Positions 2,208 through 27,600 of a stretch of DNA of 64,000 nt are shown one piece after another. Source of the stretch: an uncultured virus (IMG/VR IMGVR_UViG_3300049783_000823) (Duplodnaviria; Heunggongvirae; Uroviricota; Caudoviricetes); IMG/VR virus record IMGVR_UViG_3300049783_000823, one strand, 5' to 3'. Positions within the stretch are counted from its first letter, which is position 1. Each line of letters starts with the position of its first letter. A program made the position numbers and the translations under genes. A model generated the notes under the pieces. That model saw only the letters and a list, made by a program, of their open reading frames with translations. It was not told where the DNA came from and did not search any database.

Positions 2208-2238
2208 CTAAGGTTTATCTCACTTATGGACCTTACCC

Positions 2239-2270
2239 AACCCGTTAAATTAACCCCAGCCGGTCCCCCC
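2239..2270 (+). promoter_or_regulatory. putative phage RNAP promoter, class I (AACCCGTTAAATTAACCC)
   Basis: Exact 18-mer also at 19115 and 61945; variants at 48078 and 2570; all intergenic. Confidence 0.7.
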
Positions 2271-3449: not shown

Positions 3450-3577
3450 TGAAAACAAATCAAATGAGACACAAGGTGTTAATAGCTTTATATGCTCTGT
3501 GGCTTTCCTTATATTTGTAACCTTAGGTGAGCCTGATATAATTGATGGTATCGTACACCTATTGAGGAGCTTCGACC

Positions 3578-4254: not shown

Positions 4255-4296
4255 TAAGTAGAATGGGTTTCTATCGGAAACCACACGGAGATAACA

Positions 4297-5646: not shown

Positions 5647-5675
5647 CATTAATAATTAACACAGGAGAGCCGGTA

Positions 5676-6266: not shown

Positions 6267-6268
6267 AC

Positions 6269-7159: not shown

Positions 7160-7167
7160 GATTTATA

Positions 7168-7659: not shown

Positions 7660-7669
7660 GGAGAGCGAA

Positions 7670-8485
7670 ATGGCCTCCATCACAACACGTGCAGGGAAGG
7701 GTGCACCTCTTCTTAATACAGAAGTTGATGCTAATTTTAACAATCTAAATGATGATAAGGTAGAAAACAGTAGAGTCCTCACGGATGTGCCTGCTGGTGC
7801 CTTGTTTACAGATACTGTCTATGTCCATTCATTGAATGCTGCCGCAGATATCAACACTTCCGGTGCAACAATTGTGGACTCTATCGTGACAGATGCGGAA
7901 GGTCACATCACAGGGATGGCCACGCGTGTCATGACGCTGGCTGACCTAGGTTATACCGGAGAGACAGATGCTACGGCTGATCAGACAAAGGCTGACATAG
8001 ATGCTTTAAATATCAATGCGGATACTTTAGATGGACAACACGCTTCTGCTTTTGAGCCTGCTGATGCAACAATCTTAAAAGATGCAGATATTGGTGTAAA
8101 TGTACAAGCTTATGATGTTAATACAGCAAAAGTTGATGTGGCCGCTGACTGGGCAACAACACAGAGTTATAACCGTGTCACGTTAACCGATGCTGCAACT
8201 ATTAACTGGAACATGGCAACGAGCCCATCTGCTATTGTTTCGTTGTCTGCTAATAGAACGATGGGTAATCCAACAAATATTAAGGCAGGAAACTGGTACA
8301 CATTAAGAGTTTATCATTCCGGAGCACCTAGAACATTGGCGTGGAGTAGTTACTGGAAATTTGGTGGAAATGGTGCTCCTGGACTGAGTACAATAACTAA
8401 CGCCTATGATTTGTTAACTTTCTATGCTCACAGTATAACAGCTTTATCGTTTGTCGGTATAGCTAAAAACATATCGGTGGTGTAA
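7670..8485 (+). CDS. tail fibre-like protein
   Basis: KGAPLLNTEVDANF N-terminus, NADTLDGQHAS motif, beta-rich C-terminal domain. Confidence 0.6.
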   Translation: MASITTRAGKGAPLLNTEVDANFNNLNDDKVENSRVLTDVPAGALFTDTVYVHSLNAAADINTSGATIVDSIVTDAEGHITGMATRVMTLADLGYTGETDATADQTKADIDALNINADTLDGQHASAFEPADATILKDADIGVNVQAYDVNTAKVDVAADWATTQSYNRVTLTDAATINWNMATSPSAIVSLSANRTMGNPTNIKAGNWYTLRVYHSGAPRTLAWSSYWKFGGNGAPGLSTITNAYDLLTFYAHSITALSFVGIAKNISVV

Positions 8486-8487
8486 TT

Positions 8488-9132
8488 ATGAGCGTATTTA
8501 GTTGTGGTGTGCAAGGCGGTAAGACGTCAATTATTCCAGTTATTCCATTTAGAGAGACCTGGGCTAACAATAGAGGCTCATCTTTTCAAAGCAGCAGTGA
8601 TGGGGTACAAACAAAATACTCGACAATTAATATACCATCAAATTGCGATGGTGGAATGTTCTATTTTGAGGGCTATAAAGAGTTGAGCCAAGTGACTGTA
8701 GATGGCGTGGTCGCAGCTTTCGATAATGTTTTAGGTGATAGCTTAATTGTTGTACGACTACCTCCAGGTAAAACAGGTAATCAGTCGTTTGGGTTTACAT
8801 TTAACTTAACTGCTGTAGCAACCCAAACAGTCGATGGTATGTTTTGTAATGCGCCAGACCATGAAGTTGTTGATTATTTATACTCATTTACTTTATCAGA
8901 TGTATCTGTGTCGCAGGGTACTGCGGAGAATCCTGGTATTACGGCAGTAATATCTTATGATGGTGGTAGGAGGGGGGTTTCTTCAATTAGTCCTACACCA
9001 GATGCCTATGTATATAATTCAATAGGAAATAAAGTTGGAATATTTTATGACCACGATAATTATCCTATAACCTTAACAAGCACTGGCGAATTTGCCTATA
9101 AAACAGAAGCTAAAGTAAACGAGCTATATTAA
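8488..9132 (+). CDS. beta-rich protein, possible receptor-binding subunit
   Basis: Between fibre and fibre-assembly genes; AT-richer than flanks. Confidence 0.4.
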   Translation: MSVFSCGVQGGKTSIIPVIPFRETWANNRGSSFQSSSDGVQTKYSTINIPSNCDGGMFYFEGYKELSQVTVDGVVAAFDNVLGDSLIVVRLPPGKTGNQSFGFTFNLTAVATQTVDGMFCNAPDHEVVDYLYSFTLSDVSVSQGTAENPGITAVISYDGGRRGVSSISPTPDAYVYNSIGNKVGIFYDHDNYPITLTSTGEFAYKTEAKVNELY

Positions 9133-9133
9133 T

Positions 9134-9652
9134 ATGAAAGCACATAAAACAGAATTAAAAGCATATAAAAAGTTTCCAAAATCATTCGTAGGCGATGATG
9201 GGGTAACTTATCCTCGTAAATGGTTAGAGGATTTAGATACAGCAGGTCAAGAGGCTCTGGGCTGGTATGAGGTGGTTGATAATACAATTACGCTAGGTGC
9301 TAATGAACGTGCAGTCAAATTACCTTTAGTGTTCACAGGTACAAGTATTGAACAAAACTACACTACGGAAGCCTTTTCTGCTGAAGAAATTGCCTATAAC
9401 GCTAAATTACTTAAAGACGAAAATAGAGCTGCTGATATGAACGCTTTGACGGTAACTACGTCTTCAGGTAAAGAATTCGATGGGGATGAAATATCTCAAA
9501 GTAGAATGGCTAGGGCGGTATCATTCAGTCAACCGCTAGACACGACTCAATGGGTACTGGCTGATAACTCCGTGGCTACTGTTACTCGGGAAGAGTTAAT
9601 AGAAGCTGGTTTATTAGCAGGACAAGCACAGACAGCTCTTTGGACAACTTAA
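9134..9652 (+). CDS. tail fibre assembly-like protein (DUF4376-like)
   Basis: FDGDEISQSRMARA...WVLADN...AGQAQTALW. Confidence 0.6.
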   Translation: MKAHKTELKAYKKFPKSFVGDDGVTYPRKWLEDLDTAGQEALGWYEVVDNTITLGANERAVKLPLVFTGTSIEQNYTTEAFSAEEIAYNAKLLKDENRAADMNALTVTTSSGKEFDGDEISQSRMARAVSFSQPLDTTQWVLADNSVATVTREELIEAGLLAGQAQTALWTT

Positions 9653-9653
9653 T

Positions 9654-10241
9654 ATGATAACAATTTTATACATAATCTTAGCATACCTAATAATCACATT
9701 TGGATTAGTTGGTATTGGTTTATTCTTTAAGAAAGACTTAGGATATAAAACATTTAAAGATGGAACAGTAATCCAAAACTATGAATTACCCGACTGGTTA
9801 AAGTGGTTACAAAATCCTGAAGATAACTTAACAGGTGATAAGCGTGGTTGGTATTGGAATATCTATATGGCAGGCCGTCCTGCTTGGTGGAAGATGTTGA
9901 TATGGTCTGCTTGGAGAAACCCTTGGAATTGGTTAAAACGAATAGGAACAGGGTGTGATGTCAGAACTCATACTATTACAAAGCTATGTGGTGCCAACTA
10001 CGTTAGGGACGATTTTGATAATACTGGCTTTCAAATACTTTTAGCTAAACCAGAAAAAGGTATTACTAAACCTGCTTTATATTGGGTAAGACGTTGGGGA
10101 CAATCTAATAGAGCTATTGTTGTCCAATTAGGATGGAAAATTAAGTTAGAACATAACGGAGTTATCTATTCTGAAGAGGATAAATATGACTACTATAAAG
10201 GCTGGACGATAGAAATACAGCCAGCAAAGGATATATCATGA
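9654..10241 (+). CDS. Trp-rich membrane-anchored hypothetical protein
   Basis: N-terminal TM helix; LPDWLKWLQNPED, WRNP motifs. Confidence 0.6.
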   Translation: MITILYIILAYLIITFGLVGIGLFFKKDLGYKTFKDGTVIQNYELPDWLKWLQNPEDNLTGDKRGWYWNIYMAGRPAWWKMLIWSAWRNPWNWLKRIGTGCDVRTHTITKLCGANYVRDDFDNTGFQILLAKPEKGITKPALYWVRRWGQSNRAIVVQLGWKIKLEHNGVIYSEEDKYDYYKGWTIEIQPAKDIS

Positions 10242-10534
10242 GTTTAGGCAATAAACAAAGAGAGTTTACTCGTAAGGTGGCAGATTTAATAATCTTCGCC
10301 TATGATAACGGGTATGAGCTATCTTTTGGCGACGCTGCTAGGATGGACTTTAAAGGACATAAAGACGGATCTTTCCATTATAAAAGACTGGCAATAGACC
10401 TTAACCTATTCAAAGATGGAAAGTACTTATCAAAGACTTCTGACCATGAGCTTTTAGGAAGATATTGGGAATCAATAGGTGGCACATGGGGTGGAAGATT
10501 TAATGACGGTAATCATTACTCTTGGGGTGAATAG
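10238..10534 (+). CDS. endolysin, peptidase M15 family (copy 1)
   Basis: SFH...LAIDL...WGGRFNDGNHYS zinc ligands H/D/H. Confidence 0.85.
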   Translation: MSLGNKQREFTRKVADLIIFAYDNGYELSFGDAARMDFKGHKDGSFHYKRLAIDLNLFKDGKYLSKTSDHELLGRYWESIGGTWGGRFNDGNHYSWGE

Positions 10535-10879
10535 ATGGGTATATTCTCAAAACTACTAGGTTCAGACAAGGTCATTGATGCAGGTATTAGTGGCATAGAT
10601 TCTATCTTTTATACTGATGAAGAAAAAGCAGAGAATAAAAAAGCATTCTTAAAGTTATATGAGCCTTTCAAGGTAGCTCAACGCTATCTTGCACTAGTGT
10701 TCTCTATCCCTTATGTTATGATGGTACTTATTACTTTTATAGCTTCTTTCTTTCGGGAAGTAGAGACACAAATAGATTTACTAACAGGAGACATTGGTAC
10801 CGTAGTTGGTATCATTGTTGGTTTTTACTTTCTAGGTGGTTCTTTGAGTGGTGGATTTGGGAGAAATAAGAATGACTGA
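10535..10879 (+). CDS. holin-like protein (copy 1)
   Basis: YTDEEKA then two TM helices ending GFYFLG; adjacent to endolysin. Confidence 0.65.
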   Translation: MGIFSKLLGSDKVIDAGISGIDSIFYTDEEKAENKKAFLKLYEPFKVAQRYLALVFSIPYVMMVLITFIASFFREVETQIDLLTGDIGTVVGIIVGFYFLGGSLSGGFGRNKND

Positions 10880-11004
10880 TTATGCAGGGATGCCGCCACA
10901 AATAAAGGCCAAATTGGAGCGTTTAGTTATACCGACCAGATATTTGCGCGGTCAATAAAACAAACCGGTCTTATTCTAGAATATTACAAATACGGAGCAG
11001 AACA

Positions 11005-11376
11005 GTGAAACATCTTACTAAGTTGGAGATAAAGGAAACGAACGAAGGTTCTTATTCTTTGACAAGTCCATTCGTTGTAACGCATGACGGTATCAGGTAT
11101 AAAGTTCCAGAGGGCTTTCCTACAGACCTTGCTACAATACCCTGGCCTGTTACCGTATTCCTGCCCCAAGACGGTCCCTATAAGGCGTCAGCTGTATTCC
11201 ACGACTTCTTATTAGAAGAAATGTATGCTGGAAGACTTGATATCAGCAGGACTAAAGCTTCAAGATTGTTTTATCTTTCTCTAAGGTACGAAAAGATACC
11301 TCTTGTGAAATCGCTGGTGCTGTATAGCGGTGTTCGTTTGAAAGATTTACAAAAGTATATTGAAAAGAAATTATAA
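11005..11376 (+). CDS. DUF1353-like protein
   Basis: VPEGFPTDLATIP...ASAVFHDFL...YSGVR. Confidence 0.75.
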   Translation: MKHLTKLEIKETNEGSYSLTSPFVVTHDGIRYKVPEGFPTDLATIPWPVTVFLPQDGPYKASAVFHDFLLEEMYAGRLDISRTKASRLFYLSLRYEKIPLVKSLVLYSGVRLKDLQKYIEKKL

Positions 11377-11388
11377 AAGAGGTAACTT

Positions 11389-11862
11389 GTGATTGTAATA
11401 TGCGATGACGATAGTTTCGAAAGAGACAACTTAGAGAGATCTCTAAGAAAGATTACAGATATTGACCACATAATCCAAACGTCATCTTGTCACGAGCTGA
11501 TTGGTGTGTTGAGAGAGCACAAAAGCAATGGGAAATTCCCTAAGGTTGTTTTTGTTGATACTTTAATGATAGGGACAAACGGTATTGATTGCATGAAACT
11601 CATCAGTCAAGAATTCCCTCCTTTCCCTCTAGTGGCAGTCTGTGGCGGTGCGACACCTGCTCATATTGCTCATGCCTTTCGTGCAAACGCGAACGTATGC
11701 ATTGAGAAGCCGTATGATTCAGCAGGATGGGATCCATTTGTGGAAAGTATAACCAGGTTGCTACTTCAAACACACCCTGAGTGGTCAGATAGGAGAAGAG
11801 GAAGAGATGCAGAACCAAGAGATGAGTGTGATACGGCTAATTGTCGAAACAATGAACGATGA
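11389..11862 (+). CDS. stand-alone CheY-like receiver domain protein
   Basis: IVICDDD, VVFVD phospho-acceptor, NGIDCM, EKP lysine. Confidence 0.8.
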   Translation: MIVICDDDSFERDNLERSLRKITDIDHIIQTSSCHELIGVLREHKSNGKFPKVVFVDTLMIGTNGIDCMKLISQEFPPFPLVAVCGGATPAHIAHAFRANANVCIEKPYDSAGWDPFVESITRLLLQTHPEWSDRRRGRDAEPRDECDTANCRNNER

Positions 11863-12265
11863 GTTAGGCGATTGGCCTGTATACGCACCCGCTATTATTA
11901 TTATAGGTGCTGTAGTCTGGAAGGGTGTAAAAGGGATTCACAGGTACATAGCACCGTATAGACGCAGGATTGTTTCATCAGGCAAAGAGAAGCTCGCCGG
12001 AATGGCATCTGCGTACATATACAAGCACATGGAGTCAGAAGTTATGAACACATTAGCTAAAGAACTTAAAGCTATTGAAGTAGATATGGTAGCAAATACA
12101 AATAGCATTGAACTGTTGGTTAATGAGCAGATAGCTATGAAACAGCAGCTGCATTACGTGCAATCTCGCTTAGATGAGCGTATTGAGTGCATAGACGGTA
12201 AACTCACTGAGATACTTTCACTTGTAACCGTGCGTGTAGATCAGATAGGGGAGCCAGATGGTTGA
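11852..12265 (+). CDS. single-TM coiled-coil protein
   Basis: APAIIIIGAVVW TM then heptad-like helix; ORF 11807..12265, start uncertain. Confidence 0.55.
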   Translation: MNDELGDWPVYAPAIIIIGAVVWKGVKGIHRYIAPYRRRIVSSGKEKLAGMASAYIYKHMESEVMNTLAKELKAIEVDMVANTNSIELLVNEQIAMKQQLHYVQSRLDERIECIDGKLTEILSLVTVRVDQIGEPDG

Positions 12266-12515
12266 TCTAGTATCAGACCAAATTGAGATATCTTATGCAG
12301 AGTCCACAGCAGGTTGGTCTGGAGACTCTTTTGCCTTAGAGAACGAGATCAAAGCGCAGGGTGATCAACTGATAAAGATCTATCAAATATTAGGTATGGA
12401 TCCAACAAAACCGCTGGTGGTGAACGATAACACGAACAGCCGGTCAGCCGGTGAAATCGTACAATCTGTTATCACAGCAGGCGGCGTCACAACAGTAACA
12501 AGGACAGATATATGA
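12258..12515 (+). CDS. hypothetical protein
   Basis: GGGGAG RBS; coupled ORF. Confidence 0.5.
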   Translation: MVDLVSDQIEISYAESTAGWSGDSFALENEIKAQGDQLIKIYQILGMDPTKPLVVNDNTNSRSAGEIVQSVITAGGVTTVTRTDI

Positions 12516-12688
12516 GTTCAAGAGTAATTGCCGTCGATGGCGTCGGCTCGGGGAATAGACCTATAGCTACACGTGGCCTATCCTTCCCGATTGAGGCTCT
12601 ACAAGAAGTGATCAAGAAACAGAAACAAATGGCAGTAAAACCACCGGAAGCTTATATAGTAAGAAGCTTCTCCCGTTACAACAAATAA
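12512..12688 (+). CDS. 58-aa hypothetical protein (MSSRVIAVDGVGSG...), below track cutoff
   Basis: ATGA overlap with previous stop; open to TAA 12686-12688. Confidence 0.5.
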   Translation: MSSRVIAVDGVGSGNRPIATRGLSFPIEALQEVIKKQKQMAVKPPEAYIVRSFSRYNK

Positions 12689-12704
12689 ATGAATAGGTAA
12701 GAAT

Positions 12705-13007
12705 ATGACTAAAATAAATGCACCTAAAGCGCCTGAAGGCATGGTTGTCCAAGATGATCCGCAAATTCCTGAAGAGAATCCTCAATTCTCTCAAGAAGCG
12801 CCTGCAGAAGAGGCAACAGAGTTTGAACCTGAAGGTTTAAAAGTTGCTAAGCATGTAAAAGGCCCTCGTCTTGAAGCTCAAGACAAAGCTCCTTATTACT
12901 GGCAGGTAAAGCGAGAGGCTGGCAATAATATCTCTGCAGTAAACTCTTCAACAGGGTCAACATTCTCAGGCCCACACAAAGAGCTGTCTGAATACTTTAG
13001 AAGCTAG
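12705..13007 (+). CDS. hypothetical protein upstream of portal
   Basis: ORF with acidic Pro-rich N-terminus. Confidence 0.6.
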   Translation: MTKINAPKAPEGMVVQDDPQIPEENPQFSQEAPAEEATEFEPEGLKVAKHVKGPRLEAQDKAPYYWQVKREAGNNISAVNSSTGSTFSGPHKELSEYFRS

Positions 13008-13016
13008 GAGTAGAAC

Positions 13017-14597
13017 ATGGGCGTATCAAATGCCACTCAAAAAGGGCGCACGGTAGAAGATCCTAATGCTAAGTATGAGTCTATGCGCGGACTTTGGGCG
13101 AGAAGTCGAGCAGTCTGTAGCGGTGAACGATTTGTTAAAGAGTACGATGCTTTTATAGATGTTAATCAGTTCACTAACTTGTTGATACCTTTCTCGCCAA
13201 CAATGACGCAAGAGCAGTTCAACTTCTTCAAAGCTGAAGCGGAACTACCAGGTGTTGTGTCACAGTACGCTCATATTTTAGTTGGTGGGTTACTAAGGAA
13301 ACAGCCACAACTGGTGCTTCCTGACGATGTACCTGAGGGTGCGCTTGACTGGATAATGACTTCTTTCGCACAAGACGGCTCGCCTTTGACTTCTTTCTTA
13401 GATGACGTCCTATGGGAAGAAATGCAGACAAGCCGTGCGTGGGTGTTTGTGGACTATCCTGTGATTAAGTCTAGAGGTGATTACGTCACTAACGACTTCA
13501 AAGAGCTTAAGCCGTACCCTGTTTTTATGAAAGCTGAATCTATCATAAACTGGAGAATGGCGCTCGATGATGCCACTGGCGTTCAAAAGCTTACGCAAGT
13601 CATCGTTCGCGACTTTGAAGAGACTCTTCTAGAAGGTGACTTCCACCCAACAATGATTGACACTGTATGGGTTCATGAGATAGTCAACGGTTTCTACCAG
13701 ATAAGGAAGTACCAGAAGAAGGATGAAGATTCGTCTGTACCTGTGGCTAACGGGCAAACACAACAGAATTATAGTGTGGGCAATAGTGCGGTAGCAGGTA
13801 ATGGTACCGACTTCGAGTTTGTGGAAACTATCGATGACATCGAGTCAAACGGTGAGAGGCTTACAAGGATTCCAGCGTGGCCATTGAATGGTAGCGTAGA
13901 ACTAATTGAGCCGATCCTTACGCCTCTTATTGATAGGGAAATAAACCTTTACAATAAGGTAAGCAGAAGGAACCATCTCCTATATGGGGCTGCGACTTAC
14001 ACACCAGTTATTGCATCTGACATGGATGACGATAGTTTTGAAAAGATCGTATCTGCAGGGTTAGGCTCTTGGCTCAAACTAAGCCAAGGTGATACAGCTA
14101 CAATCCTGGACACACCCACGGATGCTCTGTCAGATATGGATAGAGCTATCGCTGCCACCTTAGAAGAGATGGGTAAGATGGGCATAAGGATGCTTGCCCC
14201 TGAGAGTGCTCAATCAGGTGTTGCTTTAGAGATCCGAAATGCGGCTCAAACGGCACAGCTTGGTACTCTTAATACTAAGATAAGTAACCAGATGGCTGAT
14301 ATTATTGCTTTCATGATTAACTGGAGGTATGGCACAGAGTACGCGGCAACTGACATCGAATTTAATCTGTCAGCTGACTTCAACCCAGCGCCAATAGGGG
14401 CTGATTGGTTACGATTGGTAACCGAGTGGTATGAATCAGGGTTAATACCTCGTAAGGCTTGGTTGCAAATAGTTAAACAAAATGACATATTGTCGCCTGA
14501 TTATGACGATGAAACTGCGCAGGAAGAGATAACCGCTGATGAAATCATTAATGGTAAAGAAGATGAAGATCTTGATGAGATCGATCTAAACAACTAA
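13017..14597 (+). CDS. portal protein (DUF4055-like)
   Basis: 526 aa; RAWVFVDYP, ESIINW, SGVALEIR, acidic tail; precedes MuF gene. Confidence 0.85.
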   Translation: MGVSNATQKGRTVEDPNAKYESMRGLWARSRAVCSGERFVKEYDAFIDVNQFTNLLIPFSPTMTQEQFNFFKAEAELPGVVSQYAHILVGGLLRKQPQLVLPDDVPEGALDWIMTSFAQDGSPLTSFLDDVLWEEMQTSRAWVFVDYPVIKSRGDYVTNDFKELKPYPVFMKAESIINWRMALDDATGVQKLTQVIVRDFEETLLEGDFHPTMIDTVWVHEIVNGFYQIRKYQKKDEDSSVPVANGQTQQNYSVGNSAVAGNGTDFEFVETIDDIESNGERLTRIPAWPLNGSVELIEPILTPLIDREINLYNKVSRRNHLLYGAATYTPVIASDMDDDSFEKIVSAGLGSWLKLSQGDTATILDTPTDALSDMDRAIAATLEEMGKMGIRMLAPESAQSGVALEIRNAAQTAQLGTLNTKISNQMADIIAFMINWRYGTEYAATDIEFNLSADFNPAPIGADWLRLVTEWYESGLIPRKAWLQIVKQNDILSPDYDDETAQEEITADEIINGKEDEDLDEIDLNN

Positions 14598-14607
14598 GAG
14601 GTTAAGC

Positions 14608-17600
14608 ATGGTAAACGTAACAACTGACATTTATGACAAATCTGTAAACAGGTCTGCAATGGTCAGACTATATGAAAAGAGAGTCGTATCTAAGGTGGAC
14701 TTACTTTTGTCAGAGCATAAAGCCCGCGTTGTGAAGCTTATAGAGGGAGGCCGCTTAGATAGAAAAGGGGCGGCTCTCCTGAATAAGTCAATAGAGCGTG
14801 AAATAAAGAATTCATTTAAGCAAATATATGGTACAGCCTCAAGGTCTTTATTAGATCTTGTCGCTGACCAGACCTCTTATATGTATCAAAGCATTGAATC
14901 AGCAACTTCTAAGATATGGAGAGCTAAGAAGCCTCCGCTTAGGGTGTCTGAGGATATAGTGCTTAAGAAGCCTTTGTACAAAAATAAGACGCTCTTAAAA
15001 GGGTGGGAAGGCGTAAGCACAGGAGAGCGTAAGCGTATCTCAGCCGTAATAAGAAGAGGTATTTCAAAAGGCTGGACTGAAGCTGAGCTTGCCAAAGAAG
15101 TAAGACGTGGCAGTGTGTTTAAGATAACGAGAAATCAATCTAGAACATTAGTCACTACAGCTATAACATCCGTTAAGGCTCAAACAGATCATGCTGTGTA
15201 TGAGGCAAACGAAAATCTGATGAGAGGCTGGCAATATGTCTCCGTACTAGATTCTCGGACTACAAGTGTCTGTGTCCATAGGGATGGAAAAGTCTATCCT
15301 ATTTCTGAAACAGAGATGCTTCCACCTGCCCACTATGGTTGCAGGTCGGTGACAATTCCTGTGGTTAAGTCATATGATGATTTAGCCAAGATGGAAGGTG
15401 TTGCCCAGATACGGAAAAGAAACTTAAAAGACCTAACAGCTAAGGAGATTAGCTATTATGATGGTCAGACACCTTTAAAGGAAACATATGATGGATGGCT
15501 TAGGCGACAACCTGTTAACGTTCAACTCAGACACTTGGGAGACTCATCTAGACTGGCACTGTTCAGGTCAGGACAACTTACTATTGATAAGTTCACTAAT
15601 AGTTCTGGCAAATCGGTCGGCATTAAAGAGCTACGAAGAATCACAGACTCAGGATATGATGTCCCAGGACAGACTCGGCGGTTTGCGATGGCCAAGCAGC
15701 ACCTTGATTCTCTTAAATTGACCGCGAATTACCCAGATGAGCTAGTTCATGATAAAGCATTAAGGAAAAGCCTTCGAGAGTACTACCTGCTACAAGCGGG
15801 TGAGCTTGACGGTCAACTGTCGTTGACTAACTATCGTGGCACATTGATGAGTAGCAAAAGAAGCACAAAAACAAGAGTCCTGTCTTCACCTCCCACGGAA
15901 GAGAATTTAAAGTTCAATCCAATAACAGGCAGGTACGAAGACGCGAGACTGTACCAACCGCATCCAGGCGTTCTGGAAAACTCTTACAAATTGATAGATG
16001 AATCAATACTCCCTGATGGCGATAAGCTGTTCATAAAGGGTATCGTTGGAGACCTTAGAGATAAGATGGGCGTAAATGAAAGAGCTGCTGTGGCGGAGAA
16101 CCTTAGAATTGTACTAACACGTGCAAGGAAAGATGGAAAGCCTTGGGCAAATCTCAAAGCTGTCTTGAATGCTCAGATGAAGTTTGATGTTATGAATGTA
16201 TCAGATTACATGGAAACGCAATTAAGGAAGAATTCTAAGCTTCTCCACAGGTTGAAACAAGATAACTATATTGACCCAGTACTAGGTGAAGTGCAATTGC
16301 AAGACTTGCATGATAACTTCATTAAGAATATATTCGCTAAAAATAAATGGGAAGATACGGTGGCTCCTAAGATTGCAAAACAACTTAGAGGTATATTGGA
16401 TCTTAAGATTCCACTGAAAGTCAGAAACAGGCTAGACAACGAACAGCTGCAAGAGTTCTATCTAAGGTTTGCCAATAGGCTTGCCCTTGCTGATTCTCCT
16501 GATAGAGATCAGTTAGCTGTTACGCTTGGGCGTGACTTATATAACATGGCCAACTACCGAGGGTCGCGAGATCAGTGGTATAAGCTAGGGTTGAAGTTAC
16601 TTGATGAAGCAGATTCAAAAGGTATCTTCAAATTAGAGACGTTCGGCGTACAGAAAAGACGAATGAAGAGTAGGTTAGGGAGTCATTACTTCGGACCTTA
16701 CTATGACACATTCGCAGTAAATCTCAGGATTGTAGACCCTCGTATACAGGAGTACGCCAGACTTACGAGACAAGTTGATGTGGGCTTAAGGGTAGCAGTT
16801 ACAAACCCTAAGAATAGATTAATTATTCGCCCAGGTTATAAGACATACTTTGTCGATCGAGGGCTTTTGGGTTACAAAGATACACGCATTCCTATCACTT
16901 CAACAAACTCTTTTTCAGGGTTTCCAACTGAGCTGGTGGACAAAAACCTGTCTACTGCACTTAACTGGGCGGCAGACAGTAAGTACAAAATTGATGAAGA
17001 CTTTCATGACTTTATTAAGAAGTTGATTAACTTTGAAGATGATAGAGGGAGAGCAAAATACTTCCACGATCTTAATGAGTATAGATCGTATATCATTGAA
17101 AGAGGAGATGCCTACGAGAGATTCAAGGCGATGGACTGGTTAAGAGATGGCAACAAAGCGTTCTCCAATCATAGCTTCGTAGATCATCGGGCTAGGATAT
17201 ATGAGCGCGGTTTAATCGGCCCTCAATCAGGAGAGACATTTCGCCCTTTCTTGAACAGTGCTGAAAGTAAACTATTTTCCAAAGATGGCTTCCATGATTT
17301 TGAAGACCAGATAGGGGCTTTCCTTGGCGGTCTCTCGGATAAGCTGGAGGGCAAACACAACTCTCTAACAGTCTTGGGGCGAAAAGCGATCGCCCATGAG
17401 TGGAGGGATGAGATGGTGAAAATCGGCCAGCACATGCTCAGAGGCAAGCCCTCAGACGTCCGTGCGGTGCTCCAGTCGAAATTCATGGCCCAAATTGAAG
17501 GTGAAGAGCAAGGAAAGGCACTACGGTATGCAATCGAGCTGGCTAAGATTTCTGATCACTTAGATGGGAACTTTTCAAGCGTAAACTTAGAGAAGCTTAA

Positions 17601-19089
17601 CAAATATAAAATATCAGTCGCATTAGAGCAAGATGCTTCCTCAAGTGGTGCTCAGATCATTGCGTTAACAACCAAAAATAAACAGCTAGCTGAGATGTCT
17701 AATGTTGTAGCTACAAATCAAAAGAGAAGACTCTATGATGAAATTGCTGCAGCTACATTTAACGACCCTAGATTCAGGGAACTTAATCTTAAGTTAGGCT
17801 TAACTGAGAAGGATCTACGAAAAGCAGCCAAGGCTCAAAACATGGTTACATTCTATGGGGCTGGAGATAAGACAGGCATACTGAACGTTGAGAATAAGCT
17901 TGCTAAGGTATTAGGGAGAGACACTAATGTCTTGGTCGTAAAAGCTGCGGAGCGTGATGCTGTTTTGAACGAGATATCAGCCAGGATGGCAAAGTATACA
18001 GACCTTGACCCTGTCATGCATGATGAGCTTAAAGCCTTACGCAAGGATATCAAAGACATCTTTGATCGTGGGGAAGTTCCAGGTGATGATATAATGAGAC
18101 AGTTATTCTTTCTTGACCCGAAGACAAAAGATTTCGTGGAGAAGATGACTAGGAATTACGGCAAAGTGATAACACCGAAAGACTTCCAAACAATAGCGAA
18201 TATTATGTCAGAGAATTTGGCTACACAAGTCCCTATCTTAAAGGATTTTACCAAGTTCTTCGGTCGTTTAGCTGAGGATTTTGTCACATACGCTGACCCT
18301 CAAAAGAGTTCAAAGTCTCTTGCTGCATTCCTTGAGATGCAGGCTAATGGTGTACGTAAGAAGCGCCCTCCTGAATTCCTTGAGCGTTTTAAGTTCTGGG
18401 ATCCAAATGGTTCGCTTTCTAAGCTTATCTACGGAGTGCCTGATAATAAGCTTCCGAAGAGTTGGACCAATATACCTTGGGTTAACTTTGATGGCAAAAC
18501 TATCGAGCAAAATTTCACGCAAGTATTTGAGCAGAGATTGAGCTACAAAGACAAAGAAGGGAAATGGATAACCAATATACTTCAAGTTCCGCAAAAGACA
18601 GATCCCTCTTTTTGGGATGAAGTTCGTAATAAAACAGGGACTATTAATGACATCGTTGATGCTCAAAAGGCTAGGACAGCTTTTGCGGTGAACGGTAACC
18701 ATTCTAATGACGCTGTTATTGTGAAGCGTTTTCACCTTTGGGGACAGAAGAATGGTGTGCAAACATCTACAATTCATGATGCGTTTTTCACTAATGCAGC
18801 GGATGTTGTGAAAGCTAAAGAAGGCATTCGTAAGACTTATTCAGAAATGGCTAAGACTAATACGATCAAAGCTACTCTGGATGAAATGCGTAGAAGAGGT
18901 CTGCCTAAAAATCTTTATGATAGCTATTTGAATGAGGCCATTGAAACTGGGTTGATACCTGTTGTGGGAAGGTCTAGGGTAGGGGGTAGGCTATTAACTG
19001 ATTCTGACATACTCACACCTGAAGAGATCCTTGACAAGGTTCCAACTGATTACAAGAGCAATCGCAGTTGGTATGGAATCGGTCAATAG
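14608..19089 (+). CDS. MuF/SPP1-gp7 head morphogenesis protein fused to a T7-like single-subunit RNA polymerase (candidate virion RNAP)
   Basis: N-terminal WQYVSVLDSRTTSVC...PPAHYGCRS; C-terminal DHRARIY, EQDASSSGAQ (A), RKAAKAQNMVTFYG (B), TIHDAF (C). Confidence 0.9.
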   Translation: MVNVTTDIYDKSVNRSAMVRLYEKRVVSKVDLLLSEHKARVVKLIEGGRLDRKGAALLNKSIEREIKNSFKQIYGTASRSLLDLVADQTSYMYQSIESATSKIWRAKKPPLRVSEDIVLKKPLYKNKTLLKGWEGVSTGERKRISAVIRRGISKGWTEAELAKEVRRGSVFKITRNQSRTLVTTAITSVKAQTDHAVYEANENLMRGWQYVSVLDSRTTSVCVHRDGKVYPISETEMLPPAHYGCRSVTIPVVKSYDDLAKMEGVAQIRKRNLKDLTAKEISYYDGQTPLKETYDGWLRRQPVNVQLRHLGDSSRLALFRSGQLTIDKFTNSSGKSVGIKELRRITDSGYDVPGQTRRFAMAKQHLDSLKLTANYPDELVHDKALRKSLREYYLLQAGELDGQLSLTNYRGTLMSSKRSTKTRVLSSPPTEENLKFNPITGRYEDARLYQPHPGVLENSYKLIDESILPDGDKLFIKGIVGDLRDKMGVNERAAVAENLRIVLTRARKDGKPWANLKAVLNAQMKFDVMNVSDYMETQLRKNSKLLHRLKQDNYIDPVLGEVQLQDLHDNFIKNIFAKNKWEDTVAPKIAKQLRGILDLKIPLKVRNRLDNEQLQEFYLRFANRLALADSPDRDQLAVTLGRDLYNMANYRGSRDQWYKLGLKLLDEADSKGIFKLETFGVQKRRMKSRLGSHYFGPYYDTFAVNLRIVDPRIQEYARLTRQVDVGLRVAVTNPKNRLIIRPGYKTYFVDRGLLGYKDTRIPITSTNSFSGFPTELVDKNLSTALNWAADSKYKIDEDFHDFIKKLINFEDDRGRAKYFHDLNEYRSYIIERGDAYERFKAMDWLRDGNKAFSNHSFVDHRARIYERGLIGPQSGETFRPFLNSAESKLFSKDGFHDFEDQIGAFLGGLSDKLEGKHNSLTVLGRKAIAHEWRDEMVKIGQHMLRGKPSDVRAVLQSKFMAQIEGEEQGKALRYAIELAKISDHLDGNFSSVNLEKLNKYKISVALEQDASSSGAQIIALTTKNKQLAEMSNVVATNQKRRLYDEIAAATFNDPRFRELNLKLGLTEKDLRKAAKAQNMVTFYGAGDKTGILNVENKLAKVLGRDTNVLVVKAAERDAVLNEISARMAKYTDLDPVMHDELKALRKDIKDIFDRGEVPGDDIMRQLFFLDPKTKDFVEKMTRNYGKVITPKDFQTIANIMSENLATQVPILKDFTKFFGRLAEDFVTYADPQKSSKSLAAFLEMQANGVRKKRPPEFLERFKFWDPNGSLSKLIYGVPDNKLPKSWTNIPWVNFDGKTIEQNFTQVFEQRLSYKDKEGKWITNILQVPQKTDPSFWDEVRNKTGTINDIVDAQKARTAFAVNGNHSNDAVIVKRFHLWGQKNGVQTSTIHDAFFTNAADVVKAKEGIRKTYSEMAKTNTIKATLDEMRRRGLPKNLYDSYLNEAIETGLIPVVGRSRVGGRLLTDSDILTPEEILDKVPTDYKSNRSWYGIGQ

Positions 19090-19114
19090 ATTCTGATAGG
19101 TTGCAGCATTAGCC

Positions 19115-19149
19115 AACCCGTTAAATTAACCCAGGCCGGTCCCCCCCCC
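19115..19149 (+). promoter_or_regulatory. class I promoter upstream of scaffold/capsid
   Basis: AACCCGTTAAATTAACCC then GCCGGT and a C run, as at 2239. Confidence 0.7.
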
Positions 19150-19324
19150 GTATATCATATGAGTGATATAGGTGGCCCTAGGTGACCTAGGTCGTAGATA
19201 GTTCTTAATTATATAATATATAATATTATAAACAAACATACTACATACGTTGTATTTGTGTAGTCAACAATTTCGTGGAGCCGTGCTCTACTTAAAAAAC
19301 AAGGCCGTGCCTTAAGGAAATAAA

Positions 19325-20065
19325 ATGACAGCAGAAGAAATAGCAGCAAAGAAAGCAGCCGACGAAGCTGCAGCAAAGAAAGCCGCCGATGAAGCAGCCG
19401 TAAAAGCAGCAGAAGAAGCAGCCAAAGCTGAAAAAGAAAGACTCGCTAAAGCTAGCGGAGACGATAATTCTAAAGACTCTGATGCGCTTGCCAAAATGGT
19501 GGCCGACAAAGTTGCGGAAGAACTTGCAGGTATTAAAGGGAAGCTAGATAACGCTTATACAGAACGTGATGAACTCAAAGGTAAGCTAGATACCATTGAG
19601 AATGAGAAACGTGAAGCTGAACTAAAGCGTTTGAAGGATGAAGGTGAACACAAAGCTGCTTATGATCTTGAGATTAAGCAACAACGTGAAGAAAACGAAA
19701 AACTTCTTAAAAGAAATACTGAGCTAAGCCGTAACGGAGTGATCAGAGAAGCAATGCGTGGTTTGGACTTCAGAAACACAAAAGCTGCCGACATAGCCTT
19801 TAAAGAGGTGGTTGGTGAGTTAGTGCAATCTGAGACAGGTGATTGGGTTCACAAGACCGGTGTTACTGTTGCGGAATACGTTGAAGCCTTCGCTAAAGAC
19901 GAGGAACAATCTTTTCTATTTAAACCAAAGTCATCTAACGGTGCAGGTACCGGCAAAGGTACAGGAACCACTCAAACCAAAAGCGAAGGTTCTATATTCG
20001 AGCTGACACAAGATGAAGTACTCGCGCGTGCAGCTAAAGGTGAATATGGAAAACCTGGCTATTAA
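19325..20065 (+). CDS. capsid scaffolding protein
   Basis: Charged coiled coil, SFLFKPK...GAGTG tail, directly before MCP. Confidence 0.75.
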   Translation: MTAEEIAAKKAADEAAAKKAADEAAVKAAEEAAKAEKERLAKASGDDNSKDSDALAKMVADKVAEELAGIKGKLDNAYTERDELKGKLDTIENEKREAELKRLKDEGEHKAAYDLEIKQQREENEKLLKRNTELSRNGVIREAMRGLDFRNTKAADIAFKEVVGELVQSETGDWVHKTGVTVAEYVEAFAKDEEQSFLFKPKSSNGAGTGKGTGTTQTKSEGSIFELTQDEVLARAAKGEYGKPGY

Positions 20066-20080: not shown

Positions 20081-21286
20081 ATGACAGCTTTACAAACTTT
20101 CGGCGGTAACTCGTTTGCATTACAAGCAGCTCTTGGTGCTTATGCAGACGAAGCTTACACAAATGCTCGTAAATTATCGAGCACAGGGATTGTCGGCCCT
20201 AACCCAGACATCAACACTGACACTGAAACCTTTATTGGTCAAGTACGTTGGTTCAAGCCTTTAAACCCGACCATCAACATTGCGTCTTTGACTGACTCTG
20301 CCAAAGGTACAGGAACTAATTACAGTTCTGACTTCAGCACTTATGTTAAATCTGTGCGTACTCACGGTGCTACTCAAATCAATTTAGCTTCAGTTGTTAC
20401 ACGTCAAGATGGCTTAGCTAAAATTGGTCGTGACTTCGCTGAAACTCGTGGTGGTGATGAGCATAATGCAGTATTGGCAACGCTTAAGGGCGTAGCTACA
20501 GCTGAAGCTCTTCATGGCGCTGGCTCTGCTGGCGGCGGTGCTGGATTAGGTGGTCAGACTTTTGACAACGATCCAACTGATAAGAAGTTCGGCTTCTATG
20601 TTGACTTAGGCGCTAATAAGCTTATTGCTGACGCTAGTGTGACAGAGCAAGGTGCTCAACGTGCACAAGGCTTCTTAAATGCATTAGGCATGGCTTGGAA
20701 AGATTATGAGCCAGAATATGCATACTTAGTGACAAGTCCTGAGATTCTTGCATCTTTACGTTCAGCCAACTTGGTCGATCAAGTTCAAATCACTGATGGT
20801 AACATCATGTTTGAGACTATCTTCAATGGCAAGTTCCGCTTGATCCAAACACGTGCTTCTCAAGGTTTCTCTGTAGCTCAGCTTGCTAAGTTGAACTTAG
20901 GTGCAGGTGCTGATATTATCGGTACTAAGACGTCATTTATCGTGCTACCTGGTGCGATTGCTATGGAACCTTTAAGCATTCCTACACCTACTGAGATCTT
21001 CCGCGATGGCGGTGCTTACAATGGTGGTGGAGCTACTGATATTTGGTATCGTTGGGGCTATGTTGCTCACCCTGCTGGTTACAACTGGAATGGTCGTACT
21101 ACGGTCTTTCCTTCTGATGCTGAATTCCAGCAAGTTGTGACTCCTTCGCTTAACGGTGGAGACCCTATCGACTTAATCGATAGTGCTTTGGTAGCAGGCG
21201 CAACTATCGACGGCGCGGTAGGAGTATGGCAGCGTAAAGCTACATCAGCCTTAACGTTGGGTATCTTACCCGTATTTCACAGCTAG
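20081..21286 (+). CDS. major capsid protein
   Basis: 401 aa, high-expression codon bias, WYRWGYVAHPAGYNW near C-terminus, position. Confidence 0.85.
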   Translation: MTALQTFGGNSFALQAALGAYADEAYTNARKLSSTGIVGPNPDINTDTETFIGQVRWFKPLNPTINIASLTDSAKGTGTNYSSDFSTYVKSVRTHGATQINLASVVTRQDGLAKIGRDFAETRGGDEHNAVLATLKGVATAEALHGAGSAGGGAGLGGQTFDNDPTDKKFGFYVDLGANKLIADASVTEQGAQRAQGFLNALGMAWKDYEPEYAYLVTSPEILASLRSANLVDQVQITDGNIMFETIFNGKFRLIQTRASQGFSVAQLAKLNLGAGADIIGTKTSFIVLPGAIAMEPLSIPTPTEIFRDGGAYNGGGATDIWYRWGYVAHPAGYNWNGRTTVFPSDAEFQQVVTPSLNGGDPIDLIDSALVAGATIDGAVGVWQRKATSALTLGILPVFHS

Positions 21287-24622: not shown

Positions 24623-27600
24623 ATGTCAGGTGTACAAGTTGATGTAAACGCAAACACTACTCAGGCTAACAGGGAGCTTGCGAAGTTAAATAGATCCCTC
24701 GGAAACATAGAAGCAACTACAAGTAAGACTTCTAAGGCTATGTCCAGTTTAGCTAAAAGTATAGTTGTAGCTGCAGGCTCATTCGTAGCGACAGGCTACT
24801 TTAAGAATGTTTCTGATGGCTTTACAAATATGAGCAATAGGGTCAGATTGGTTACGGGAGACACCAATGATCTGATTAAAGCTCAAAATGAGCTAATAAA
24901 GATTTCCCAAAGAACAAGAGTGACTTTTGAATCTTCTACTGAAGTTTTCAATAAATTTGGCAGAGCGTTAAAAGGTACAGGCGTGCCTGTTGACAAAATA
25001 CTTAAAGTCACTGAATCGATACAACAAGCTGTTGTCATATCTGGCGCAAGCGTGGAATCCGCTAATTCAGCATTACTACAGTTAGGTCAAGGTTTAGCTG
25101 CTGGTCAGTTGCGTGGGCAAGAGCTTAACTCTGTAATGGAACAGACTCCTAGGATTGCGCAGGCTATAGCTGCCAGCTTAGGCGTAGGAATTGGTGATTT
25201 AAGGAAACTTGCTGAACAAGGTGCACTTACGACCACCGTTGTCTTTGATGCTTTGCAAAAACGAGCAGGTGTGATAGCTGGTGAATTTGAAGGTATGAAT
25301 GCCACTATCGCTCAAAGCTTCTTAGTCTTATCTCAGTCAACCAAAGTGTTCACAGGTGGGTTCTTGAAAGGGCTAGGTAGTGATAACTTAGCCGCCAATT
25401 TCGCACTATCGTTAGCTAAATCAATAGATAAGGCTTCTGAAGATATAACGATCAGAACGGCGCTATTTGTATCTAAATTTAAGGCAATAGTCAGTGACAT
25501 CAGGCTTATCGCAGATCCTCTGGCGCGTGTGTTTAAGCAAATCGGTATAACTATCCTTGAAGCATTGCCTGCGCCTAAGTTGGTGAGTACCTTAGCCAGG
25601 GATATGAAGAAAGCTATCATCTCTTACTTAGGTCCAATAGTGACAGTCTTTAGGTCTGCTCAAAACTCTATGGTTTCGTTTTTCGAATCTATGGACGTGT
25701 TCAACATAAGACCAGTGTTAGGTGCATTATATGATTTAGCTGATATCGACTTCAGCTTTTCGAGAGAGACTCTGACAGCCTACTCTAAAGGTCTTGATAA
25801 GCTTGCCAGTGCTATCAAATTTAATCGTGAGGATAGTATCTTTGTATCTATTGCTCAGGGAATGGTACACGCTGAGCAGGGCGCAAGATCTTTAGGCAGA
25901 TACCTAGGTGTATTTGAGGATACATTCTTGATCTTTAGGGCAGAGCAAGCTGTACCTTTCTTCCGTTTGTTTGAAGAGTTTGGTCAAATAATCCCACGTA
26001 TTGTTCGCGAGGTTAAGACATTAAAATTCACTATGCTGGAGTTGTTAGGTGACTTTGGGCCAGGTTTAACTAAGCTACTGGGAGTGGATGAAGCAATTAA
26101 AGGCTTGTTTGCTGTAGCAGATTTAGTCAATAAGTCTGTTGCCTTTCTAGCCGCACCTTTCGTCTCCTTACTTAATGAGAAAGCGTCTACAACGGTCGAG
26201 ATGATGTCGTCTCTCGAAAAACTTAGCGGCAGCTTTGCGAATAACATAGGGAAATCTTTTGCAAAATTAGGCGACAGCGGTGATATTTTCGGATTAACGA
26301 AAGCTTACAAAGTCATAGATGCTTTCATGGGTAAATTCAGCGAGTTGACTGGTCTTCTTGAATCTGATTCTTGGTGGACTGACACGATTGAAAGCGTAGT
26401 AAGCACTTCTAATGCGTTATGGGGAATGGTCGCTTCTGGCTTCAGACGTTTCCAAAATGGCGTTACCGGAGCGTTTCGCCATCTATTTAACGCCTTTCGG
26501 AGTCTAGGTGAGGCAGTGACTAGTCTGTATGAGAACATATTTGAAGGCGACCAATTGATCGGTAAGTTCTTGATATTCGGTTTGATAGGCGCTGCTCTAC
26601 TAGGTACAGGTACTATTCTCGCTTTCGGTGCTGCTTTCTTGGCAGTCAAGGTTTATTTAGGATATGCAGGGGACGCAACTGATAAACTAGTTGAAGGTTT
26701 CGAGTCACTAGGTTTGGCTGCAACGTCTATCCTCGGTATATTCAAACCATTACTGGATACTTTCAAAAGTGTTAAAGAAATGTCTGTTGAGGGTTTATCT
26801 GACGCAGCTGATTACATTGAAGACTTTTCAGATGACGTCATAAGTTTCTTTGAGAACATTTATGATAAGGTAATCGGTAATTCCTGGTGGACTGATACAA
26901 TAGATAATGTTATTGAAACATCTAGGAGCCTAGCGAATAAGACCAGAGCTGGGTTGACTGACTTTACTAAGAAGACAATAGGTTACTTCAAAGAGATTAA
27001 AGAGGAAGCTAAGTCCCTTACAGCTTACAAGATATCCTTTGATTTGGTATCAGATTTTAAAGCGTCTGACTTGTTTGGTGATGTTCTTTCATTTAATACT
27101 CTGGGGGACACTTTCGGAGAACGTATGATAGTTTTGATGAATACGTTTAAGGAAGAGTTTCCTAATGTGTTTAAATCAGCGTTGTTAGCTTTAGCAGGAC
27201 TGGCTGTGACTATACTGTTCCCAGCAGGTAAGATTAAGACGGCAATCCTTACAGGTTTAACAGGTGCATTCATTGCAACTAGTACACTAATCGCAGATGC
27301 TTTTGGAACCGTTAGATTGAACTCAGGTTTATTTGCAGAACTTAGTCTCCGTTTCGGTCAAGTGGCTGCAGAGTTTATTAACAGCATAGTAAGAAATTTG
27401 CCGAATATCGTATCGGCTCTTATAGACACTGTCGGCGGACTGGCCAGAGGTGTGCTCACGAATTTAATAGGCGTTGGTGGTATATTTAAAGCCTTATTTG
27501 ATGTAGCAGATGTAGCAGGCGTCGGGAATCCTTTAGGGATATTCTTTGGGTACCTCTTCGGTAAGTCTATATTACCCATTCTTAGTGCTACTAAATACGG

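Follow-up and report, generated by a model that had tools for sequence, protein, structure and literature searches.

A MuF-type minor head protein fused to a complete T7-like RNA polymerase: a candidate portal-loaded virion RNA polymerase in uncultured long-tailed phages

To our knowledge, virion-carried RNA polymerases (RNAPs) are known only from a few phage groups, namely the N4-like, crAss-like and jumbo phages and the phage P23-45, and those that are known have been informative on how transcription can start without the host and on how large proteins pass across the cell envelope. Here we describe a gene of the uncultured virus IMGVR_UViG_3300049783_000823 (IMG/VR; Caudoviricetes), analysed in a stretch of 64,000 nucleotides (the window), which represents ~64 of the ~71 kb of the genome, ~7 kb lying outside. 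This gene encodes a single polypeptide of 1493 amino acids (aa) composed of a complete MuF module, a linker of ~210 aa and a whole T7-type RNAP. It most likely corresponds to a new way of carrying a virion RNAP, and a different and simple one, with a complete T7-type polymerase borne by an ordinary portal-side minor head protein.

The gp44 protein of phage 80alpha is presumably a member of the MuF/gp7 family of minor head proteins. In the accessible text of the literature on such proteins, SPP1 gp7 is described as binding the portal in 1-2 copies per capsid (PMC5576092), 80alpha gp44 as an ejection protein present in ~2 copies per capsid and encoded between the portal and scaffold genes (PMC7290940), and enzymes fused to MuF are taken to be packaged in the head and injected (PMC5512222, PMC9503650). 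In N4, the polymerase of the virion RNAP gp50 is flanked by ejection and encapsidation regions that include a zincin-like peptidase domain, and N4-like virion RNAPs are stated, in the available part of the same source, to occur in N4-like phages only (PMC5512222). For the Thermus phage P23-45, the accessible text describes gp96 as a virion RNAP fused to the tape measure protein, which transcribes the pre-early genes, including the gene of the non-virion RNAP gp64; MuF is not mentioned in that paper (PMC10770324). No RNAP is listed as MuF cargo in the portions available of the MuF literature (PMC5512222, PMC5576092, PMC9503650), and the word 'polymerase' does not occur in the MuF toxin paper. 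A MuF-RNAP fusion is likewise not described in the literature found by full-text search, with subscription-only papers outside the search.

The fusion gene and the parts of its product are as follows.

14608-19089, plus strand: MuF-RNAP fusion gene (P0001), ATG start, 1493 aa, a single uninterrupted open reading frame (ORF)
14608-15657, plus strand: MuF/SPP1 gp7 minor capsid module, aa 1-350, from phrog_241, PF04233, TIGR01641 and the structure model
15658-16290, plus strand: linker domain, aa 351-561, mostly helical, outside the range aligned to T7 RNAP
16291-19086, plus strand: T7-type single-subunit RNAP, aa ~562-1493, with N-terminal domain, thumb, palm, fingers, specificity-loop-like beta hairpins and C-terminus

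The MuF module is formed by a long N-terminal helical hairpin followed by the MuF core, in which C222, H242 and C245 are invariant. Pfam PF04233 (Phage_Mu_F) matches aa 143-249 with 52 bits (curated cut-off 29.6), NCBIfam TIGR01641 (phageSPP1_gp7) gives 57.1 bits (cut-off 39.65) and the PHROG 'head morphogenesis' family phrog_241 spans aa 7-345 (E 7e-60). The signatures LDSRTTSVC (aa 214, 15247-15273) and PPAHYGCRS (aa 239, 15322-15348) lie within the core. The MuF/gp7 signature and the RNAP motifs had been recognised from the bare sequence in the original prediction; their coordinates were right, and PF04233, TIGR01641 and PF00940 all score above their curated cut-offs. The AlphaFold domain parse proposed at the same time, based on models of aa 351-1493 and aa 1-575 that were both built from a 39-sequence alignment, yields a MuF module, a helical linker and a complete T7-type RNAP. 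In the model of aa 1-575 (predicted local distance difference test, pLDDT, 86.5), a hinge at aa 348-355 has low confidence. Residues 1-350 superpose on standalone minor capsid proteins of ~360 aa (A0A6G5YJ26, 361 aa, TMt 0.80, root-mean-square deviation (rmsd) 3.6; BFVD), on the Halfdan head morphogenesis protein (TMt 0.67; BFVD) and also on cargo-bearing MuF proteins, e.g., the Xp12 ADP-ribosyltransferase. The fusion protein is therefore like the MuF/SPP1 gp7 proteins in its N-terminal module, in the place of its gene after the portal gene and in its predicted fold. A complex prediction for the portal monomer and MuF aa 1-350 returned a score of 0.00 and a mark of 0.32, which counts neither for nor against their association.

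The model of aa 351-1493 (pLDDT 86.0, pTM 0.82) predicts a polymerase fold that is complete and T7-like from the N-terminal domain through to the C-terminus. The best VIA-align row is T7 RNAP (8dh5_E, Z 30.1, rmsd 3.4, 532 residues aligned, model positions 214-1142 against T7 39-883), followed by the mitochondrial RNAPs of yeast (Z 27.8) and human (Z 26.6), and Foldseek retrieves POLRMT (E 6.4e-20) and T7 RNAP (E 1e-19). The alignment runs to T7 residue 883, and the polymerase C-terminus is also that of the whole chain. The N4 enzymes score lower, with Z 20.2 for the mini-vRNAP (3c46_A), 13.0 for 9pnq and 14.8 for N4 RNAP II; the analogy with N4 drawn in the original prediction can be kept as a functional one, whereas the structural likeness is to the T7 and mitochondrial enzymes. 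PF00940 (RNA_pol) matches with 51.5 bits (cut-off 22), covering only parts of the profile, and the PHROG RNAP families phrog_414 (E 6.9e-21) and phrog_2051 (E 5.9e-11) match on aa 1001-1107 and 1287-1429; MuF and RNA_pol are the only Pfam domains found on the protein. The sequence match to T7 RNAP itself is weak (E 0.012). The polymerase part thus shares with the T7/T3/SP6-type (Autographiviridae) and mitochondrial RNAPs the fold and the catalytic motifs over T7 39-883 but only 12-17% sequence identity, and, unlike these free, cytoplasmic, early-made and cysteine-containing enzymes, it is late-encoded, fused to a head protein and free of cysteine.

The 500-600 aa first described as unrecognised sequence between the MuF signature and the catalytic motifs turned out to be mostly the N-terminal domain of the polymerase, since the alignment to T7 39-883 starts at aa ~562; only the ~210 aa of the linker (351-561) are unassigned. 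This segment is moderately conserved and is modelled with a pLDDT of mostly 80-95 in both models. Foldseek with the aa 1-575 model found no match in PDB at E<=1e-3, a wide VIA search of the same model found generic helical bundles on aa 1-207 only (Z<=10.6), and an Atlas feature search with the linker gave no usable match. The linker accordingly has no assigned fold, which, as it was searched within larger models, does not imply that its fold is novel.

All the catalytic motifs expected in a T7-type enzyme can be placed on the sequence.

17182-17202, plus strand: DHRARIY motif, aa 859, aligned to T7 RNAP 421-427, with R863 invariant
17626-17655, plus strand: motif A, EQDASSSGAQ, with D1009 (nt 17632) invariant, aligned with motif A of the second polymerase of the window (RNAP2, see below)
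17818-17865, plus strand: motif B, RKAAKAQNMVTFYGAG, aa 1071-1086, with K1072, K1075, Y1083 and G1084 invariant
18772-18786, plus strand: motif C, IHDAF, aa 1389, aligned to T7 IHDSF, with D1391 invariant

HMMER aligns DHRARIY and IHDAF to the corresponding T7 motifs, and an HSND motif upstream of motif C contributes the invariant D1368. In the alignment of 39 sequences, the invariant columns are R863, E977, D1009, N1032, K1072, K1075, Y1083, G1084, D1368 and D1391, and the catalytic residues remain invariant down to 19% identity. Judged from these residues and the modelled fold, the polymerase is apparently active.

The fusion is not peculiar to this genome. The identical 1493-aa protein is recorded from 9 contigs, and a search with aa 350-1493 recovered 480 clusters (90% identity) at E<=1e-3. 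Both Pfam domains are present in 117 of the best 120 of these clusters, with lengths of ~1500 aa, and many of the 120 are named 'SPP1 gp7 family putative phage head morphogenesis protein' at source. A phmmer search with aa 351-1493 against 1.84 billion representatives retrieved only 162 proteins, almost exclusively of the fused family, which indicates that the polymerase forms a distinct clade, far from ordinary T7-like enzymes. Thirty of these 162 matches were scanned for domains: MuF is found at aa ~140-250 in 26 of the 27 that exceed 1000 aa, down to 19-35% identity, and the other three are short and are plain RNAPs. A single MuF match was also obtained in each of three complete relatives (one has terminal repeats), in frames of 1103, 1539 and 1540 aa, and scans of the window's ORFs found no MuF protein besides the fusion. 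As far as these sequences tell, the fusion architecture is ancient and widespread. In three distant relatives (P0219, P0230 and P0249), an extra CxxxC pair is present at aa ~354-362, just after the MuF module, and falls at the hinge, the low-confidence linker region of the fusion protein.

A megablast search of positions 14000-20000 against named phages gave no match; at the protein level, three named phages were found to carry the full fusion, the roseophages DSS3_VP1 and DSS3_PM1 of the Naomviridae with 31% identity and EBPR siphovirus 1 with 53.5%. The roseophage protein is annotated as 'head morphogenesis' (DSS3_VP1, RefSeq) or as 'minor head protein-like protein' (both phages, GenBank). 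In EBPR siphovirus 1 (JF412302), the fusion is split into gp47 ('head protein') and gp49 ('hypothetical') around the HNH gene gp48. No Rfam match was obtained at this locus at the gathering threshold; a looser search gave a group I intron match below threshold, which begins at the end of gp47 (7179-7405, 40.5 bits, E 1.4e-8). Together with the HNH gene, this match suggests that the split corresponds to an intron and not to two proteins, so that the annotation of EBPR siphovirus 1 appears to hide a spliced fusion gene.

The fusion protein has the low cysteine content of a virion protein. Its only cysteines are C222 and C245, both invariant MuF residues, and aa 246-1493 contain none, against 8.6 expected from the window average. 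These two are also the only cysteines in 33 of 38 relatives, and the polymerase module is cysteine-free in 37 of the 38. The virion proteins of this phage are nearly devoid of cysteine (tape measure 0/2741, major head 0/401, scaffold 0/246, portal 1/526), whereas its cytoplasmic enzymes contain 1-2.5% (terminase 10/449, DNA polymerase 10/690, primase-helicase 9/595, reductase 12/636). Nine cysteines are encoded by the exons of RNAP2, and exon 1 of its orthologues encodes 4-7 each (n=25 of 40 related loci, the remaining 15 comprising the copy of the window itself, near-duplicates and incomplete or interrupted matches). In N4, gp50 has no cysteine in 3500 aa, and gp51 and gp52 have none either. 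By its cysteine content, the fusion polymerase thus falls among the virion proteins, which taken alone is no demonstration of ejection. The tape measure gene occupies 24623-32848, and the adaptor and tube candidates are likewise free of cysteine. The contrast between virion and cytoplasmic proteins is clean enough to sort the unknown ORFs of the window into virion and non-virion proteins.

The second polymerase of the window, RNAP2, is a compact T7-like enzyme encoded by a gene that is interrupted by two group I introns; its exon borders are approximate.

43460-46759, plus strand: RNAP2 gene, 3 exons (PF00940, E 7.2e-31 and 2.4e-25; phrog_414, E 1.7e-62 and 4.6e-41)
45040-45235, plus strand: RNAP2 intron 1, group I (RF00028, 58.1 bits)
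45310 to ~46090, plus strand: RNAP2 intron 2, group I (RF00028, 84.2 bits on 45310-45572)
45605-46060: ORF of an HNH-AP2 homing endonuclease within RNAP2 intron 2

Intron 1 interrupts motif B, exon 1 ending in ...HRRKVVKR and exon 2 carrying ...VMTLPYGGTAYG. RNAP2 and the fusion protein are barely similar (BLASTP E 0.18 and 0.001), and the family phrog_2166, 'N4-like RNA polymerase', matched RNAP2 and not the fusion.

Two classes of promoter-like motifs were identified, using for comparison 40 related loci fetched with RNAP2 as query (50-70% identity).

2236-2275, plus strand: class I promoter-like motif, heading the block of packaging and structural genes to which the fusion gene belongs
19112-19151, plus strand: class I promoter-like motif, just past the stop codon of the fusion gene and before the scaffold and major head genes
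48075 and 61942: further copies of the class I motif, ahead of the replication block and of a further block, respectively
40568-40610, plus strand: class II promoter-like motif, copy 1, 34.9 bits with its position weight matrix (PWM), after the terminator hairpin of the lysis genes and at the head of the early block
42536-42578, plus strand: class II promoter-like motif, copy 2, PWM 41.6 bits, ~0.9 kb upstream of the RNAP2 gene

The class I core of 16-18 nt has four matches in the window against 0.05 expected, with PWM scores of 23-35.5 bits against a shuffle maximum of 15.7, and heads all blocks other than the early block. With up to 4 mismatches, it occurs in 38 of the 40 related loci, EBPR siphovirus 1 contains 4 copies, and we take its core to resemble the upstream half of a T3-type promoter. 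Class I sites fall into two subclasses, in which the core is followed either by ~8 nt and a C run (2236, 19112) or by a CCCT...AGGG hairpin (48075, 61942).

Class II is composed of two blocks over ~25 bp, and its two copies, which exceed a shuffle maximum of 7.5 bits, are the only ones in the window; the 3 kb that separate RNAP2 from the lysis genes contain both. Of the 40 related loci, 28 include 1.8 kb or more of DNA upstream of RNAP2, and each of these has class II there, on the coding strand; in the other 12, where class II is lacking, the upstream DNA is shorter than 1.3 kb. The promoters of N4 are DNA hairpins; unlike these, the class II core shows no conserved inverted repeat, nor does the class I core, so neither corresponds to an N4-type hairpin promoter, and a TATC/GATA pairing is seen in some class II copies only. 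RNAP2 would be unable to make its own first transcript, and the reader of class II must hence be present at entry, which leaves the host RNAP or the fusion enzyme. The 275-nt intergenic region that follows the endolysin gene (40366-40640) contains, in this order, a terminator-like hairpin, direct repeats (CTGGAG three times and GAAAAYGTCT-like), an inverted repeat and then class II, and may be a regulatory leader or encode a small RNA.

The same layout with two polymerases is found in DSS3_VP1 (NC_055826), in which the second RNAP is encoded at 42436-44634. This genome contains 12 coding-strand copies of a 23-nt promoter-like motif of its own, from 2250 to 59204, with none between 29404 and 45934, a gap of 16 kb that ends at the first copy downstream of RNAP2. 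A unique exact 33-nt repeat, located at 35790 and 36237 after a terminator hairpin, heads the early block upstream of RNAP2 and contains a perfect -10-like hexamer. Its core agrees with the class II core at 14 of 19 positions in a hand alignment, which is suggestive only of a relationship with class II. Neither the 23-nt motif nor the 33-nt repeat was found in the accessible text of the Naomviridae literature. The two-polymerase design appears from these comparisons to be older than the present phage group.

We consider it probable, with some reserve, that the fusion protein is a virion RNAP which is carried into the capsid through its fusion to the minor head protein, is ejected, and reads class II to transcribe the early genes and RNAP2. 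In this scheme, the fusion protein would be made late from a class I promoter, alongside the head proteins, and its MuF module would dock it in a few copies on the portal of the procapsid, as SPP1 gp7 and 80alpha gp44. At the next infection, it would leave the head through the tail with the DNA, and its polymerase would read the class II sites (40568, 42536), giving the early genes and the intron-split RNAP2; the latter would then turn to the class I sites (48075, 61942, 2236, 19112) and transcribe the genes for replication, packaging and structure, the fusion gene among them. The first two steps rest on homology to SPP1 gp7 and on 80alpha gp44, and the later ones are inferred. The original prediction, in which MuF serves to package and eject an RNAP for early transcription, fits all the computational tests that were run; presence in the virion, ejection, RNA synthesis and independence from host RNAP are what we infer.

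Several points weigh against this scheme. The virion role is a prediction from sequence and modelled structure, and, the nearest folds being those of free cytoplasmic T7 and mitochondrial RNAPs, homology lends it no direct support. Low cysteine content is common to all the virion proteins here, and it argues for a virion protein rather than for ejection or activity. A folded enzyme of 170 kDa would have to pass through a siphovirus tail, for which we know of precedents among other large proteins and of none for such a MuF cargo. The assignment of each polymerase to class I or class II is tentative, and in ~10 relatives a class I site of the C-run type lies ~1 kb upstream of the class II pair, blurring the two-step scheme. 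In DSS3_VP1, the 33-nt repeat provides the top two matches of the class II matrix over the whole genome, but with scores of 4.9 and 1.2 bits, inside the shuffle range. The Naomviridae literature, in its accessible text, does not mention 'RNA polymerase'. Finally, class II holds a -10-like hexamer, which makes the host RNAP a possible reader.

This last point leads to a scheme in which the fusion protein is packaged and ejected but the host RNAP reads class II and makes RNAP2, the fusion having another job in RNA synthesis, such as replication priming, internalisation of DNA by transcription or the use of a few unrecognised sites. Replication priming is also a function of T7-type and mitochondrial RNAPs, whose folds are the closest, T7 RNAP contributes to the internalisation of DNA, and the hexamer is perfect in DSS3_VP1. 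Moreover, 80alpha gp44 acts on genome ends after ejection, according to the available text (PMC7290940). We nevertheless regard this scheme as unlikely: no -35 element is suitably spaced, the spacer to the -10-like hexamer would be ~14 nt and the base that precedes the upstream block is variable. The 13-bp core of class II is nearly invariant, although the RNAP2 proteins are only 50-65% identical, and a related element is present in a roseophage of a different host, which is how promoters of phage RNAPs behave. Furthermore, sigma-70-like sites are not enriched in positions 1-20000 (37 against 44.1 expected).

It is also conceivable, and in our view quite improbable, that the fusion acts in the producing cell only, as a late polymerase, as an enzyme tethered by MuF at the portal vertex, e.g., for a packaging-coupled step, or after cleavage with the MuF part kept in the head. 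T7 RNAP has roles in concatemer processing and packaging, the fusion gene is late, downstream of the class I site at 2236, and ejection is a predicted step. Against such a role, the late genes are already covered by RNAP2 and the class I sites, and the cysteine-free polymerase part of 37 of 38 relatives, compared with the cysteine-rich intracellular enzymes and RNAP2, fits a virion protein. The PHROG and profile scans of the other ORFs of the window detected no prohead protease, nor a second MuF protein, the in-frame starts at aa 300-620 show no convincing ribosome-binding site for a free polymerase, and the fusion is kept in 26 of the 27 long distant relatives.

That the polymerase part is an inactive relic, serving as bulk cargo or as a DNA-binding domain, or that the fusion is an artefact of assembly or gene calling, could be argued from the weak T7 RNAP match and the partial coverage of the Pfam profile, and is close to refuted: the conservation of the fusion together with the invariant catalytic set (down to 19% identity) makes either very unlikely, the whole T7 fold is modelled with high confidence, and the assembly artefact envisaged in the original prediction is ruled out by the identical protein on 9 contigs and by hundreds of independent full-length fused relatives, among them 117 of the 120 best clusters, 26 of the 27 distant proteins and three named phage records.

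If the fusion protein is indeed an ejected virion RNAP, it would resemble N4 gp50 in being a capsid-carried, late-encoded, single-subunit RNAP of the T7 superfamily that acts before a second phage RNAP. Both are also cysteine-free (0 in the 3500 aa of gp50, 0 in aa 246-1493 of the fusion), which is a shared signature and not a criterion for a family. Unlike the fusion, whose carrier is MuF in a long-tailed phage, gp50 is a protein of 3500 aa of a podovirus and has no MuF domain. Compared with the architecture of the N4 virion RNAP, the fusion lacks the flanking ejection and peptidase regions, and its fold is nearer to T7 RNAP (Z 30.1) than to the N4 mini-vRNAP (Z 20.2). With P23-45, as far as its accessible description goes, the analogy would lie in a long-tailed phage, an RNAP fused to a structural protein that leaves the virion, and two dissimilar promoter motifs. 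The enzymes of P23-45, however, are two-barrel (cellular-type) RNAPs carried by the tape measure protein of the tail, whereas here a T7-type (right-hand) RNAP is borne by a portal-adjacent head protein.

The position of an enzyme at the C-terminus of MuF is shared with cargo proteins such as 80alpha gp44, the MuF toxins and the MuF-ADP-ribosyltransferase of Xanthomonas phage Xp12, as these are described in the available text (PMC5576092, PMC5512222, PMC9503650). The known MuF cargos, toxins or host-modifying enzymes, reach a few hundred residues at most and are found mostly in temperate phages, accompanied by immunity genes. Here, in contrast, the cargo is a polymerase of ~930 aa plus the linker, the next gene encodes the scaffold, and no lysogeny gene was found, the PHROG scans of the window ORFs detecting no integrase or repressor families. 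The fusion protein thus belongs to two families, MuF/gp7 and T7-type RNAP, and is not part of a toxin-immunity system.

We also advance, tentatively and as a whole, a wider reading that we find possible without calling it probable. MuF-RNAP would be a third, independently evolved lineage of virion RNAPs, of the T7 type as opposed to the N4 or two-barrel type, and loaded at the portal by a generic head-protein tag. This lineage would be common among uncultured long-tailed phages of fresh and marine waters and would also occur in the Naomviridae, which are globally distributed and have uracil-containing DNA (dU-DNA). The two-block class II early promoter would have been inherited with the enzyme, from freshwater phages to roseophages, and the whole programme would run on two phage polymerases without host RNAP. 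The enzyme may even stay tethered by MuF to the portal-proximal end of the DNA, coupling transcription to genome entry. The dU-DNA of DSS3_VP1 is made with an enzyme of the dCMP-deaminase family and an HD hydrolase, according to the accessible text (PMC12697855); neither family was found in the window (~64 of ~71 kb), which allows no inference on the DNA of the present phage.

The family is large (480 clusters) and has cultured members, DSS3_VP1 and DSS3_PM1 on Ruegeria pomeroyi, making it testable at the bench. If the proposed role is correct, MuF would be shown to carry and deliver an enzyme of ~1100 residues, and the phage would provide a new, compact and probably very specific polymerase-promoter pair, potentially useful for in vitro transcription. 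It would also explain how widespread environmental phages, some of them with uracil in their DNA, can be independent of host RNAP from the first minute, and correct the present annotation of these proteins as plain 'head morphogenesis protein'.

The neighbours of the fusion gene confirm the place between portal and scaffold that the 1493-aa ORF had been given in the original prediction.

13017-14597, plus strand: portal gene, directly upstream of the fusion gene (phrog_145, E 2.2e-49; Pfam DUF4055)
19325-20065, plus strand: scaffold gene, downstream of the fusion gene (phrog_206, E 6.4e-6)
20081-21286, plus strand: major head protein gene, after the scaffold gene (phrog_247, E 1.4e-18)

Downstream of the portal gene, which extends to 14597, the fusion gene begins at 14608, and it is followed by the genes of the scaffold and of the major head protein; it belongs to the late structural block, behind the class I motif at 2236. 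The order of portal and fusion genes is kept in DSS3_VP1, and in EBPR siphovirus 1 the gene upstream of the fusion is gp46, annotated only as hypothetical. The window corresponds to the genome of a long-tailed phage with all genes on one strand, which also encodes a terminase, a tape measure protein of 2741 aa, lysis genes and a replication set comprising a family A DNA polymerase, a primase-helicase, a ribonucleotide reductase and a ligase. Among the structural genes, between a tail-chaperone-like gene and the portal gene, an ORF at 11389-11862 encodes a response-regulator receiver domain (PF00072, E 7.5e-12) with 7 cysteines in 157 aa. The replication block further contains genes for a CsrA-like regulator (phrog_9500, E 6.4e-24; 52010-52201), a SegE-like GIY-YIG homing endonuclease (54226-54858) and a MazG-like pyrophosphohydrolase (47348-47677).

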